A program made the translations under genes and the position numbers. Below are positions 56,665 to 64,000 of a stretch of 64,000 nt of DNA, piece by piece. The notes under the pieces are model-generated. The model saw only the letters and a program-made list of their open reading frames with translations. It was not told the origin of the DNA and made no database searches. The stretch lies in the NCBI GenBank assembly GCA_963729715.1, contig CAVSPA010000006.1, forward strand, positions 224,001-288,000, in the 5' to 3' direction. Within the stretch, counting starts at the first letter, position 1, and each line of letters begins with the position of its first letter. This stretch comes from an uncultured delta proteobacterium (GTDB lineage: Bacteria > Desulfobacterota > Syntrophia > Syntrophales > UBA2185).

Positions 56665-58000
56665 GAGACTGTGTCGTAATTAGGTAAATGCATAATCAAG
56701 CTCTTTGACAAAAAGATATCAGGTTTAGGAGAAAAAGCTGTAACACAAGCCACATTGATATGATAGAGTTTTTCCGAAAGGAGAAACAGCATGGCATATC
56801 GAAGTGGCGATCGTCAGCAGATGAGTTTACTTCCCCAGAGCATTGAAGAATATGTGGCTGAGGATGATCCTGTCAGGGCCTATGACGCCTTTGTTGAAGC
56901 TGTTGATTTCCATGAACCGGGAATCAATATCAATCCGTACAAGGTAGGCCATGCCGAATACGATCCCCGGTCAATGCTCAAGCTGCTTGTATATGGCTAT
57001 TCGTACGGCGTGAAGAGTTCCCGTAAGCTGGAGAGGGAGTGTTACCATAACATAGCCTTTATCTGGCTCATGGGCGGTTTGAAACCTGACCATAAGACGA
57101 TAGCGGAGTTCCGGCGCCGGAACAAGAAAGCGTTGAAAAAGGTTTTACGACACTGTGCCCAGGTATGCATCAAACTGGAACTGATCGCCGGCAATGTTCT
57201 GTTTGTTGACGGCACGAAGATTAGGGCAAATGCCGGACGTAATCGCACTTATGACCGAACCTATTATGAAAAGCTTCTGGCTAACCTTGACAGCCGTATT
57301 GAGCAGTTGCTCGCCGATTGTGAGACTACCGACAAGTCAGAGGAAGGCACATCCTCTGAGGTTGCGATGGACAAAGAGTTGGCTAAGAATCAGAATTTGA
57401 AAGAGCGGATCAAGGAGGCCCTTAAATCTTTTGCATCAAGCGATAGGAAGCAAGTCAATCAGACTGATCCTGATTGCGCCATGATGCACAGTGTTCAGGG
57501 CAGTCATGCCGGTTATAATGTCCAGAGCGTAGTGGATGATGAACACGGCCTTATCGTTCAGGCAGAAGCGGTAAGCGACGCCAACGATGTACGGCAGTTT
57601 GCCCGGCAGATCGATCAGGCCAATGAACTGTTGGAGGCGCCCTGCAAAGTGGCGTGCGCCGATGCCGGATATAGGGATACCGTTGAATTGGAGAAGATTG
57701 ATCAACAGGAGATAAAGGTTATTGTTCCATCACAGCGGCAAGCATTACACGAGGCAGAAAGTCCATTCAGCAAGAGCCATTTTACCTATGATAAAGAGAT
57801 GGATTGCTATATATGCCCGGAAGGACACAGATTGCTTTATAGTTTTACCAATAAGAGAAAAGGCAAGCGGCAATATCGGACGGATATGAGTTGACAGCGC
57901 CTGAAATCTTTTCATGTTACAGCGCGTGACGATTTCCTAATATTTTTTTGTCAAAGAGCGCTTATGTTACAAAGGGCCTAATCTATTATGACACAGTCTC
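56665..58000 (+). mobile_element. IS1182-family element, internally deleted (1336 bp)
   Basis: 16-bp terminal IRs GAGACTGTGTCGTAAT / ATTATGACACAGTCTC (15/16 match) and subterminal IRs 56700-56723 / 57936-57959 (22/24 match). Confidence 0.9.
56791..57894 (+). pseudogene. C-terminally truncated IS1182 transposase
   Basis: YDP..MLKLLVYGY, SSRKLE, PDHKTIAEFR, VDGTKI, TDPD, YNVQ, ADAGY, CPEG; stops before the last DDE segment. Confidence 0.85.
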
Positions 58001-60290: not shown

Positions 60291-61067
60291 TCAGATGCCG
60301 GCATACCACTCGTATCCATGATCTTCCCAGTAACCCCCTTTTCCCCCGGCTATCCTGGAAAGATCTTCGACGATTTCGAGGCGCATGACATACTTCGCCA
60401 TTTTGTAGCCGAGCTGCCGCTCCAATCGCAAGCGCAGCGGTGCGCCGTTCTGGATTGGCAACGGTCTGCCATTCAGTTCATAAGCGAGTAGCGTCTGCGG
60501 GTGAAAAGCGTCTTCCATGTCGATGCTCTCGTAATAGGGGGAGTTGCCGTCTTCTTCCATCGGGTCTGCGCAGTAGAAGACGACATAACGAGCATTGGGC
60601 TTCAGATGTACTGATTCGAGCAGCGCACTGAGGCGTGCCCCTTTCCACATGCCTATCGCGCTCCACCCCTCAACGCAATCATGGCGCGTTATCTGGGTGC
60701 GACTGGGAAGCTTTCGCAGGTCGGCAAGCGAAAAAGTCATGGGCCGTTCAACTAGACCGCCTACCGAGAGGCGATAGTCCTTAAATCCTCTGTCCGCCAT
60801 GGCCGCGTATGCTGGATTATCCGGTATCGATGTCCCGTTGCTGCGGAATTGCGGTGACAGATCGGCTTCTGTGAATTCCTGCGCCATCGCTTTGCGCGGC
60901 AGGATCATCCTTTGAACTCTATATGTAGCCTTTTCGCCGAGACCCAACACCTTGGGGAACCAGGTGGTTTCCGAAAGTTTTTCGCAGCCGCTAAGCGCTA
61001 TGAGGCTTGCGCCGGCAAGAAGGCGCGTCATGAGACTGCGCCGTGTGAGCTTGTTATCATTACTCAT
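60291..61067 (-). CDS. Tat-exported sulfite-oxidase-family molybdoenzyme (MsrP/YedY-like)
   Basis: TRRSL, LSGC, RHDCVEGWS, HPQTLLAY.LNG..L...NGAPLRL, GYKMAK, GYWED.GY. Confidence 0.9.
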   Translation of the reverse strand: MSNDNKLTRRSLMTRLLAGASLIALSGCEKLSETTWFPKVLGLGEKATYRVQRMILPRKAMAQEFTEADLSPQFRSNGTSIPDNPAYAAMADRGFKDYRLSVGGLVERPMTFSLADLRKLPSRTQITRHDCVEGWSAIGMWKGARLSALLESVHLKPNARYVVFYCADPMEEDGNSPYYESIDMEDAFHPQTLLAYELNGRPLPIQNGAPLRLRLERQLGYKMAKYVMRLEIVEDLSRIAGGKGGYWEDHGYEWYAGI

Positions 61068-62085
61068 GATCCGCCTCCGATTTGACCATGTAGTATCCCG
61101 TAATCATCGAGCGGACATTATTCCAGAAGCCAGTGATGATTACCATAAACACGTGAATGAACAAGAACAGCACCAGCGCCCAGGCGACAATGAAATGGAT
61201 CGTCCTTATGGATTGCCGGCCGGAAAAGATATCAACCCAGCCGGAGGATAATGCGTTCATTGCCGGCGACATGCCGAGCCCCATCATGATCATCAGGGGG
61301 AGAAGAAAAAAGATCACCGCCAAATAGGCGCATTTCTGCAGCACGTTGTAGTTCTTGGCCGCCTCGCCTCTCGGATGTCGAAAGAGAAGGTGATCGATAA
61401 GCGTTCTGCCTATCGAACGCCAATCCTGCCTCGTGGGAACAAGGTCACGGTGCAAATGCCTGCTCACAATGGAGTAAGTCAGAAAGGCGATGCCGTTTAT
61501 CACGAACAGCCAGGCGATAGAAAAGTGCCAGCGCCGTGCCATGGAAAGCCAGCGATTATCGGGTATGGTAAGCCAGGAGGGAAAGCTGCGCTCGGTCAAT
61601 TCTCCCTCCGAGTTCCTGGAGGCGCCGAGGAATCCGGTCGTATTGAATTCATGGCCTAAGATGCGGGTGACGCCGCGGGAGATGTCTCCTTCATCGTCTT
61701 CTACGCCCCGCAGCTCCAATACGGGGGGAGCGCCGTTGTAAGACTGCTTGCCCCAGTAGAGGGCAGGATGCGCGTCGAAAATATTGAGACCGCTCATCAG
61801 GAGTGCGGCAAGCAAGACGACATTGCTCCAGTGCATAATGCGGACAGGCAACGAATGCCTGTAATACGGATATCCACTCGAAATGGCGCGGCACAAGTTT
61901 TTCCATAATGTCCTTAGCCAACCACTCACGAGGTGTGCGGCGCGCAACACGGCATTGTGCAAGTGTATGATGAGCACGGACAACGAACGCCGGCAATACG
62001 AAAATCCACTCGAAGCAGTGCGACTAACTTTTTCAATTATTTTTCTCAGCCGGCCGTATACTGTTTCGTTTATTCGTCCCGCCAT
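61060..62085 (-). CDS. Cytochrome b/b6 (Ni_hydr_CYTB-like) membrane partner with duplicated N-terminus
   Basis: RIMHWSN, RRWHF, YNVLQK, RTIHF..W...HVFM. Confidence 0.88.
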   Translation of the reverse strand: MAGRINETVYGRLRKIIEKVSRTASSGFSYCRRSLSVLIIHLHNAVLRAAHLVSGWLRTLWKNLCRAISSGYPYYRHSLPVRIMHWSNVVLLAALLMSGLNIFDAHPALYWGKQSYNGAPPVLELRGVEDDEGDISRGVTRILGHEFNTTGFLGASRNSEGELTERSFPSWLTIPDNRWLSMARRWHFSIAWLFVINGIAFLTYSIVSRHLHRDLVPTRQDWRSIGRTLIDHLLFRHPRGEAAKNYNVLQKCAYLAVIFFLLPLMIMMGLGMSPAMNALSSGWVDIFSGRQSIRTIHFIVAWALVLFLFIHVFMVIITGFWNNVRSMITGYYMVKSEADHE

Positions 62086-62479: not shown

Positions 62480-63571
62480 ATGAAGAATCTCCTTTTAAGT
62501 TTGATATCACTTATATTTGTAATGGGATGTCAGAGTTCAGACGGAGACCGACGGGAGGCAAAAAGCCAAATGAAAGAAATGAGTGCGACAAAGCAAATAG
62601 CCACATTCGCCGGCGGCTGTTTCTGGTGTGTAGAGTCTGATTTCGAAAAAGTTCCTGGTGTTGAGAAGGTAATATCCGGCTATACAGACGGAACCGGGGA
62701 GAATCCGACCTATGAAACATATAGCAGGAAGGGATATGTAGAAGCTGTCCAGGTTTATTTCGAGCCCTCGAAAGTGACCTATGAACAACTGCTCGATTAC
62801 TTCTGGAAACATATCGATCCCACGGACCCGGGAGGACAATTTGTCGACCGTGGTCCTCAATACAGAAGCGCGATATTCTATCACGACGAAGAGCAAAAGC
62901 GGCTGGCGGAAAAATCAAAGGCGGAATTAGGTAAATCTGGGCGGTTTTCCAAGCCGATCGTGACGGAAATCATCAAATCCAACAAATTTTTTGATGCGGA
63001 GGAATATCATCAGGATTACTACAAGAAAAATCCTCTAAGATATAAATACTACAGACAAGGATCGGGACGTGATCAGTTTCTGAAGAAAGTGTGGGGAGAA
63101 GAAAATGCCGGCATCAAACCCGCCGGAGCTCAAGAATACAAAAAACCTGATGACATAACATTGAAGAAGCTATTGACCCCCATGCAATACAAAGTAACGC
63201 AGCACAAAGGCACAGAACCAGCCTTCTACAATGAATACTGGGACAATAAAAGAGAGGGCATCTATGTGGATGTAGTTTCAGGTGAACCCCTTTTCAGCTC
63301 GCTCGACAAATTTAATTCTGGAACAGGCTGGCCGAGCTTCACAAAGCCCCTCGAACCGGGAGACGTTGTCGAACTGGGAAGGCCCACTTACGCTGGTACG
63401 GAGGTACGGAGTAGGTACGCCGACTCACACCTCGGGCATGTCTTCCTCGATGGGCCGGAGCCGACCGGACTTAGATATTGCATGAACTCGGCCGCTATGA
63501 GATTCATCCCCAAGGAGGACTTGGAAAAAGAAGGTTATGGCAAGTATTTAAAATTATTTAGCCAGAAGTAA
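62480..63571 (+). CDS. msrAB: Lipoprotein peptide-methionine sulfoxide reductase MsrA/MsrB fusion
   Basis: VMGC lipobox; [35 protein letters not shown]. Confidence 0.95.
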
Positions 63572-63718: not shown

Positions 63719-64000
63719 CTATTGAACTGTTCCTATGTAAGTACCGGCCTTCTTTAAGGCAATTTCCATTTCTTGAATTGTAATTATTGCCGGATCATAA
63801 TAAACAGTGGTTATCTCCTTAAAGTAGCGAAAGCCTTTTTCAACTCTCTTCACTCCCTTCAGCCCTTCCAGGGCCTCCTTGCCAACGTCAAATCATTTAA
63901 CATAAAAGGTCGCCTCGGATGTTACAGCATCTTTTGCGAGAGAACCCCCATAACCTGAAAAGAGAAACATCATGAAAACAAAAAGAGTCAAAGACTGAGT
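63719..64000 (-). CDS. Putative exported HMA/ferredoxin-like-fold selenoprotein (5' end outside window; in-frame TGA at 63895-63893)
   Basis: Manual translation: TQSLTLFVFMMFLFSGYGGSLAKDAVTSEATFYVK-U-FDVGKEALEGLKGVKRVEKGFRYFKEITTVYYDPAIITIQEMEIALKKAGTYIGTVQ*; SECIS-like hairpin downstream. Confidence 0.75.
63861..63875 (-). promoter_or_regulatory. Candidate bacterial SECIS element
   Basis: GGCCCU-GGA-AGGGCU hairpin whose G-starting loop lies 23 nt after the UGA. Confidence 0.6.

Follow-up and report, generated by a model that had tools for sequence, protein, structure and literature searches.

An apparently uncatalogued family of small, predicted exported selenoproteins with an MsrA-like core, encoded beside methionine sulfoxide reductase genes

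Our comparative analyses indicate that a small minus-strand gene at the end of the window, by which we mean the whole stretch of 64,000 nucleotides studied here (G000:C6:224001-288000), very likely encodes an exported selenocysteine (Sec) protein of an uncatalogued family. The mature part is predicted to be a stripped-down core of methionine sulfoxide reductase A (MsrA), 71 residues long, and its genomic context points with high probability to the defence of the periplasm against methionine oxidation. More tentatively, and with somewhat less than an even chance of being right, sequence comparisons lead us to propose that this exported selenol domain resolves oxidised periplasmic Msr enzymes in trans. 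The argument draws on the following features:

63719..64000, minus strand: codons 6-98 and TAG stop of the small Sec gene, whose product has 98 residues
G000:C6:288001-288015, directly outside the window, minus strand: codons 1-5 of the same gene
63935..64000, minus strand: predicted Sec-pathway signal peptide, residues 6-27, with a hydrophobic core and an SLA end (from sequence and a hydropathy heuristic)
63893..63895, minus strand: in-frame TGA, codon 41, read as Sec and aligned to the MsrA catalytic Cys and to the second Cys of the HMA CxxC
63861..63875, minus strand: SECIS-like apical hairpin with a 6-bp stem and a GGA loop, 23 nt after the UGA
63815..63817, minus strand: nearly invariant Glu67, aligned to MsrA's general-acid Glu (Glu94 as numbered in E. 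coli/Neisseria)
62480..63571, plus strand: msrAB fusion gene, convergent with the small Sec gene, with an N-terminus that looks lipoprotein-like from its sequence and the MsrB motif GTGWPSF
61060..62085, minus strand: b-type cytochrome, which is the membrane partner for the MsrP-like gene (weak match to TIGR02125)
60291..61067, minus strand: MsrP-like molybdopterin oxidoreductase (NF003767 at 103.8 bits, short of the cut-off of 207), a recurring neighbour of the family

The minus-strand frame from 64000 to 63719 reads as an earlier note on this DNA had described it, from a hydrophobic stretch through ATFYVK to the TGA (63895-63893), then FDVGKEALEGLKGVKRV and later TVYYDPAIITIQEMEIALKKAG. The TAG stop of that description also stands (63721-63719), but seven codons, TYIGTVQ, which follow ALKKAG and precede the stop, had been missed. 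Extension of the contig places the ATG at G000:C6:288015, 15 nt past the end of the window, and the complete protein of 98 residues, in which U41 is the sole TGA-encoded one, contains no Cys, as had been remarked of its visible part. The existing annotation splits this gene in two at the internal TGA. Its nearest named relatives come from Syntrophales, Nitrospirota and other deltaproteobacterial-type MAGs. Of the 57 family members tested by the hydropathy heuristic, 47 combine a basic N-terminus with a hydrophobic core, and we infer that the family proteins carry a signal peptide, that is, that they are predicted to be exported. Only a weak purine tract could serve as ribosome-binding site in the 40 nt before the ATG, which makes the expression of this copy less than certain; a scan for promoters and terminators yielded no promoter scoring above shuffled sequences, and the minus strand ahead of the gene gave none. 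A gene for a 79-aa protein with a DUF6566 / CV_2116 domain (L001:5062-5301, minus strand) lies 46 nt upstream of the small-gene start, outside the window, and the DNA at its position differs in relatives. Elsewhere in the window, a 367-aa open reading frame at 56791-57894, which we take to be transposase-like, seems to end early.

The TGA at codon 41 is a conserved trait of the family. This codon was anchored in 100 loci, one contributing search having supplied the best 80 of 265 confirmed stretches, and among the matches listed the 73 distinct anchors comprise 65 TGA, conserved down to ~49% identity, four TGC/TGT, two CGA and two mis-anchored cases, with no TGG; the earlier note had proposed to look for homologues with Cys or TGA at this column. 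Conservation also extends to both sides of the TGA, with the excess of third-position substitutions found downstream (1283 vs 401 and 376) and absent in the 10 codons upstream (184 vs 167 and 252). In protein databases, the Sec column of 117 matches shows 23 Cys, 39 Trp, one Arg, one Gly and 53 without any residue, nearly all of the latter being fragments that begin right after the TGA. A profile search retrieved 283 representatives at E <= 0.001; in the 95 of at least 75 residues, taken from the 150 listed of these 283, the column contains 48 Cys, 27 Trp, 11 gaps and nine others. Since one of the Trp forms, P0029, is the product of locus L041, whose DNA has TGA, we take Trp here to reflect translation of TGA under code 4, and the simple nonsense mutation of a Trp codon, which the earlier note had named as a possible objection, finds no TGG among the 73 distinct anchors to support it. 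A sample of 400 genomes from the phylum, with 12 candidates scored per genome, gave at least 14 strong matches, namely 11 TGA, one Cys, one Ser and one fragment; 11 more-distant TGA genomes, partly overlapping the earlier sets, stand at 46-63% identity. The genome studied here possesses the full Sec machinery that the earlier note had proposed to look for, with selA, selB, selC and selD all above cut-off, selC being a tRNA-SeC with a TCA anticodon and selD carrying its own TGA. The presence of selA was tried as a control for TGA forms and rejected because it does not discriminate them: it occurs in 18 of 18 carriers, those of Cys, Ser and Arg included (selB is above cut-off in 15 of the 18).

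The hairpin, GGCCCU-GGA-AGGGCU at 63875-63861 (6 bp, a 3-nt GGA loop, 23 nt, -8.3 to -8.4 kcal/mol), has the location and the loop distance given in the earlier note, and it fits the bacterial SECIS model, as this is set out in the Fig. 2 legend of PMC13188914. Its folding energy is not significantly different from that of shuffled sequences in four windows (z = 0.45, -0.88, -0.65 and -0.06) and, being no better than theirs, is not used as stand-alone evidence. What places the hairpin above chance is the fixation of synonymous sites across homologues together with the conserved TGA. In 66 distinct TGA genes, Leu49 is CTG (65/65), Gly51 is GGG (66/66) and Ala48 is GCC or GCT, against a use of the commonest codon of 39-85% at other Gly, Ala, Val, Leu, Pro and Thr sites; as the relatives are not independent, this comparison within genes is the fairer control. 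In 65 of the 66 TGA genes, the loop G and all four inner pairs are preserved, for a codon-resampling null of 2.5 (maximum 7), and none of four Cys genes has intact inner pairs; likewise, the hairpin core is kept in all 11 more-distant TGA genes and lost in Cys and Ser genes. Changes in the hairpin are one-sided, with no two-sided compensatory change seen. We presume that SelB bound to this hairpin directs the reading of the UGA as Sec.

Some copies look different. In two CGA alleles (L032, L069), Sec becomes Arg and the conserved Asp that comes next is replaced by Gly, a pattern suggestive of decay. A second copy is frameshifted (L056 near 645), another is interrupted by ~2.9 kb just past the TGA (L105, 320 and 3230), and a degenerate TGA copy lies upstream of msrA/msrB in L204. 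Such decaying relatives (two CGA, one frameshifted second copy, one interrupted copy), together with the weak ribosome-binding site of the present copy and a hairpin that alone is no more stable than shuffles, would fit a TGA that is a true stop, leaving a pseudogene or two short open reading frames. We regard this as highly improbable in view of the same TGA in 65 distinct anchors among the matches listed, their Cys counterparts, the third-position substitutions favoured downstream and the hairpin sites fixed synonymously in TGA forms only. The exported single-Sec protein suggested by the earlier note is supported by the SECIS element, the Cys homologues, the Sec machinery and the signal-peptide heuristic.

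The earlier note had also assigned the protein to the HMA fold of copper and mercury carriers, and here the picture is more nuanced. A Pfam scan of the protein (P0001) gave no family match, PF01625 and PF00403 included, and its best scores in NCBIfam (June 2026) are far below cut-off: 26.1 bits against 95 for NF041115, with one Sec and no UxxU motif, and 29.8 bits against 275 for NF041383, in a match limited to profile positions 140-202. NF041383 is the best NCBIfam match in 62 of 63 members at E <= 0.1, while TIGR00401 matches four of 63 (best E 0.0047), PMSR one of 48 (E 0.035) and HMA (PF00403) two of 48 (best E 0.017). AlphaFold2, with the TGA entered as Cys, predicts for residues 28-98 a beta-alpha-beta-beta-alpha-beta domain (pLDDT 93.6), whose top Foldseek match is MerP (TM 0.79, E 2.6e-4), with MsrA lower (TM 0.68-0.71). 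VIA-align gives HMA domains Z values up to 9.8 at 1.8-2.8 A rmsd and MsrA cores Z values of 6.5-8.3 at 1.4-1.7 A over 66-69 residues, the tightest superposition being that of the MsrA cores 4lwj, 5fa9 and 3bqe (1.4 A over 66-67 of 71 residues). As both kinds of core superpose, the fold does not choose between them; the sequence does. Profile comparison with hhalign, built on 43 Cys-read members, ~22 MsrA and 36 HMA domains from the fetched loci, both reference sets being narrow, favours MsrA (97.3%, E 2e-11, score 62.6) over HMA (68.7%, E 4.5e-5, score 26.9), HMA and MsrA matching each other at 0.8%. The preference persists when the Sec site is removed (49.7 vs 28.4), and column-shuffled profiles score at most 16 vs 62.6.

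In a BLAST match to the neighbouring MsrA (E 0.004), U41 falls on the catalytic Cys and Glu67, present in 91 of the 95 listed representatives, on the MsrA Glu. Among PDB sequence matches, HMA domains mostly start at or after the Sec site, and two MsrA matches span residues 35-85. The GMxCxxC loop, which we take to be the metal-binding motif of HMA domains and which this genome's CopZ also has, is absent, there being one Sec/Cys column and no second ligand column. The HMA-like topology claimed by the earlier note is retained, whereas an HMA-type metal binder is not supported, given the missing CxxC, the profile preference for MsrA and the Msr neighbours; similarly, U41 does align with the second Cys of a CxxC although the loop itself is lacking, and of the motifs taken as an HMA signature the C-terminal helix with its AG is HMA-like, while VxYDP aligns with MsrA. 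The domain is not a complete MsrA either. The family motif is V-x-[U/C]-[YF]-D-V-G, whose aromatic residue is not followed by Trp, so that GCFWG / GUFWG, described as the MsrA active-site motif in PMC6316033, is not matched. Trp53 is replaced by Asp, the 15-residue Tyr82 (NPTY) loop is a gap in the alignments and the C-terminal half of MsrA is absent; the loss of Trp53 and of the Tyr82 loop argues against a classical methionine sulfoxide (Met-O) pocket. The roles of Glu94 as general acid and of Tyr82 and Tyr134 in MsrA are those given in a figure legend of PMC6210582. Thr92 and Tyr93 are conserved in 80 and 72 of 92 listed representatives, and the last strand of the domain falls, by aligned structural ranges only, on the MsrA strand after Tyr134; sequence profiles do not place this TY on the MsrA QY. 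Apparently, the family is derived from the MsrA core or is its sister. For the natural Cys homologue P0046, feature matches in the ESM Atlas are all <0.9, and structure matches comprise unnamed clusters, HMA and clusters with PMSR (13%) or with Thioredoxin_7 plus PMSR, which we treat as leads only. Pentatricopeptide matches were rejected as summed repeats.

The convergent msrAB gene, confirmed at 62480-63571 and mentioned only in passing in the earlier note, has become the main functional clue. An msrA or msrB gene lies within 4 kb in 39 of 70 distinct loci, many on short contigs, and in 24 of the 32 loci having at least 2 kb on either side; with MsrP-like or sulfite-oxidase-family genes counted as well, the figure rises to 29 of these 32, against one of 32 for a P-type ATPase. 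Such a molybdoenzyme is the sole Msr-type neighbour within 4 kb in five of the 32. In the taxonomic family of G244, 20 of 70 genomes carry the family gene, at 21 places, 20 of which have msrA or msrB within 1.5 kb. The msr genes stand upstream, downstream or convergent to the family gene, in varying order and strand. The MsrP-like gene and the b-type cytochrome (60291-62085), which lie upstream of msrAB as a pair, are found again next to family genes in about 9-10 loci. The 3.76 Mb of this genome contain two msr loci; the second is an exported msrB + msrA pair (G000:C5:482640-483686), and the small gene is absent from the locus fetched. Among related genomes, msrA was found in 21 of 26 and the small gene in five of 61, which implies that Msr enzymes do not need it. 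In four of these relatives (G022:C38, G001:C3, G027:C1 and G005:C1), MsrA has one in-frame TGA and corresponds to the known selenoprotein MsrA type.

The neighbouring enzymes themselves were compared by their motifs. MsrBs with GTGWPSF lack a Cys that is the resolving residue in other MsrBs, and this motif is found in 40 of 40 distinct neighbouring MsrBs. It is equally found in 17 of 17 control MsrBs from loci without the small gene, and the missing resolving Cys was accordingly rejected as a specific link to the latter. Neighbouring MsrAs have CFWC in 38 of 53 cases, that is, a second Cys close by. No thioredoxin, DsbD or CcdA family occurs among the recurring neighbours scanned (37 with Pfam, 16 with NCBIfam). 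An OmpR-type regulator is present in 26 of 99 loci, and a histidine kinase likewise in 26 of 99. Other neighbouring (seleno)protein families are YHS, ArsS, OsmC-like and Sec-MsrA. Genes split at a conserved in-frame TGA (ATAA-U-MMGT), which are presumably OsmC-like, adjoin the family gene at L033:2616, L034:3648, L038:2882, L041:1691, L047:2790 and L099:440. Exported proteins with 14-31% Met lie beside it in 15 of 131 loci (among them L029, L031, L036, L037, L056, L057, L062, L067, L068, L085, L086, L092 and L109) and recall MrpX, a scavenger of HOCl according to PMC4436054.

Fusions strengthen the tie to Msr enzymes. Protein searches, in which longer forms gave at least two matches among 8000 scored, are blind to fusions split at a TGA, and these were found in genome DNA instead. 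Five genomes of a single genus (L188, L220, L227, L229, L234) carry the domain as an N-terminal in-frame fusion to a Sec-containing MsrA, probably through one event; in L188 (G244:C4:181832-185104, minus strand 820-1812), this gives a double selenoprotein of 331 residues, domain plus Sec-MsrA, with predicted export. A gene with an in-frame TGA in GVW-U-PYC (L188, minus strand ~1900-2540) sits just upstream of this fusion; we assume it to be AhpC/TSA-like and probably a known peroxiredoxin-like selenoprotein. In two genomes of two other genera (L223:874-1731, L224:886-1737), the domain is found in a C-terminal fusion to MsrB with a twin-arginine-like leader, and in L224 the fusion gene is followed by a separate one for Sec-MsrA. 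The closest match of the fused MsrA is the C. oremlandii MsrA (E 5e-53), a 1-Cys/Sec type; according to PMC4479559, Grx or the catalytic Cys of a second MsrA resolves its sulfenic acid in trans.

We tentatively favour a role as resolving partner because the substrate pocket is lost, the nucleophile is kept and two unrelated enzymes, Sec-MsrA and MsrB, occur as fusion partners of the domain, as would fit a shared service. An MsrB or Sec-MsrA without a resolving Cys of its own would reduce Met-O and be left with a catalytic sulfenic or selenenic acid; Sec41 would attack this acid, Glu67 perhaps protonating the leaving oxygen, and the resulting mixed Se-S or Se-Se bond might then be reduced by another copy of the domain, by a small thiol or by a thioredoxin-like donor that is unlinked. 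Several observations weigh against this proposal. The GTGWPSF motif is shared by all 17 control MsrBs, most neighbouring MsrAs have their CFWC, and the small gene is much rarer than msrA (5/61 vs 21/26 genomes). The five loci of 32 whose only Msr-type neighbour is a molybdoenzyme also fit poorly, as MsrP-like and sulfite-oxidase-family molybdoenzymes are not known to use thiol recycling. No recurring electron-donor family was met among the neighbours scanned, the five MsrA fusions from one genus probably count as one event, the best structural matches by Z and E-value are HMA domains, and the ribosome-binding site of this copy is weak.

Nearly as likely as the resolving role is that the domain acts by itself as a minimal sulfoxide reductase or oxidant scavenger in the periplasm, Sec41 and Glu67 acting in the manner of MsrA on exposed Met-O, small sulfoxides, HOCl or peroxide, side by side with the full-size Msr enzymes. 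The retention of the nucleophile, of the next aromatic residue and of the general-acid Glu (the role of Glu94 in PMC6210582) speaks for it, as do the conserved Thr92/Tyr93 and the last strand placed, again by aligned ranges only, on the MsrA strand after Tyr134. The MsrB fusions resemble MsrBA, the same compact domain with its CFW intact follows a thioredoxin-like domain in VPGUxxT type 2 proteins, an arrangement like that of MsrA in PilB, and MsrP-like genes and the Met-rich exported proteins of 15 of 131 loci, reminiscent of MrpX (PMC4436054), adjoin the family. Yet Trp53, the Tyr82 loop and the entire C-terminal half of MsrA are missing, the TY is not on the MsrA QY by sequence profiles, and such a reductase would be redundant in tandem with a complete Sec-MsrA. 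Some other function within the same periplasmic oxidative-stress system, as redox sensor or ligand for the linked two-component system, substrate-presenting adaptor or Se/S carrier serving the selenoproteins nearby, seems improbable to us: OmpR-type regulators and histidine kinases (each in 26/99 loci) and the YHS, ArsS, OsmC-like and Sec-MsrA families nearby would suit it, whereas the domain is fused to MsrA and MsrB, not to the kinase, and conserves the general-acid Glu of MsrA. Still less probable is a periplasmic binder of metals or metalloids of the HMA type, like CopZ or MerP, with one selenol ligand. The size and topology, the first rank of MerP in Foldseek (TM 0.79) and of HMA domains in VIA (Z up to 9.8), the HMA-like C-terminal helix and AG motif, U41 on the second Cys of CxxC and the weak matches to the NF041115, CopZ and MerP models all point that way; against it stand a single chalcogen ligand without a GMxCxxC loop, HMA matches in the PDB that mostly start at or after the Sec site, when two MsrA matches span 35-85, a P-type ATPase in one of 32 loci vs msrA/msrB in 24, and fusion partners that are Msr enzymes.

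The selenoprotein family is real and has apparently so far escaped cataloguing. None of the 119 reviewed selenoprotein families in Table 1 of PMC13188914, in the accessible portion of that article, is matched by name, motif or model, and most NF/TIGR models of this table should be in the NCBIfam release scanned. Nor is the family described in the available parts of the deep-Sep (PMC12013277), BSepDB (PMC13326102), SelCysML (PMC13745706) or Olavius (PMC1976440) papers; a full-text literature search found no paper on it, and supplementary tables may still bear on it. In databases its members appear fragmented or with a Trp in place of the Sec, often under the name CopZ. It would add one family to the bacterial selenoproteome, covered by no NCBIfam (June 2026) or Pfam model. 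Little is understood of the recharging of MsrB and Sec-MsrA enzymes that lack a resolving Cys, particularly for the periplasm of anaerobes, and natural Cys forms that are easy to express, along with natural fusions to both enzymes, make this question directly testable. The domain is also the smallest MsrA-like core seen in this analysis and, as it matches both MsrA and HMA profiles, which miss each other, it bears on the origin of the MsrA fold. The most far-reaching version of our proposal, which we consider rather unlikely as a whole, is that this uncatalogued and widespread family is a dedicated trans resolving module for periplasmic MsrA/MsrB, made of a bare MsrA core instead of a thioredoxin fold, and at the same time a sequence bridge between MsrA and HMA domains, in which the catalytic Cys of MsrA corresponds to the second one in the HMA CxxC, a sign of shared ancestry.

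Among known systems, the resemblance to MsrA (PF01625, TIGR00401; the C. oremlandii 1-Cys/Sec MsrA, PDB 4LWJ) includes a core superposing at 1.4 A over 66 of 71 residues and the alignment of the FxxxC/U spacing, the next aromatic residue, GV, G[FWY], the general-acid Glu and VxYDP. Unlike MsrA, the domain has 71 instead of ~150-200 residues and U-[YF]-D-V-G instead of GCFWG, lacks the Tyr82 (NPTY) loop, the C-terminal half and a resolving Cys, and stays below the Pfam and TIGR cut-offs. Among catalogued domains, the nearest to it is the compact C-terminal one of the VPGUxxT thioredoxin-like (seleno)protein type 2 (NF041383), with which it shares an ungapped alignment of 62 columns (97% probability) and the same short beta2-beta3 hairpin; however, that domain keeps CFW behind a thioredoxin-like domain bearing the Sec (VPGU), whereas ours occurs solo or fused to Msr enzymes and bears the Sec itself. 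With HMA domains (MerP, CopZ, CopA/ATP7, PF00403; UxxU NF041115), it has in common size, topology, C-terminal helix, AG motif, the top Foldseek and VIA matches and a Sec at the second-Cys position, but it has neither GMxCxxC or UxxU nor metal-transport neighbours, and it possesses an invariant Glu and G[FW], both absent from HMA domains. Finally, as a proposed exported partner linked or fused to Msr enzymes, it may be likened to PilB's N-ter domain (PMC6210582), the C. oremlandii Grx (PMC4479559) and MrpX (PMC4436054); by contrast with N-ter and Grx, which have a thioredoxin fold, and with MrpX, a Met-rich peptide, the family domain combines a predicted MsrA/HMA-type fold with one Sec.
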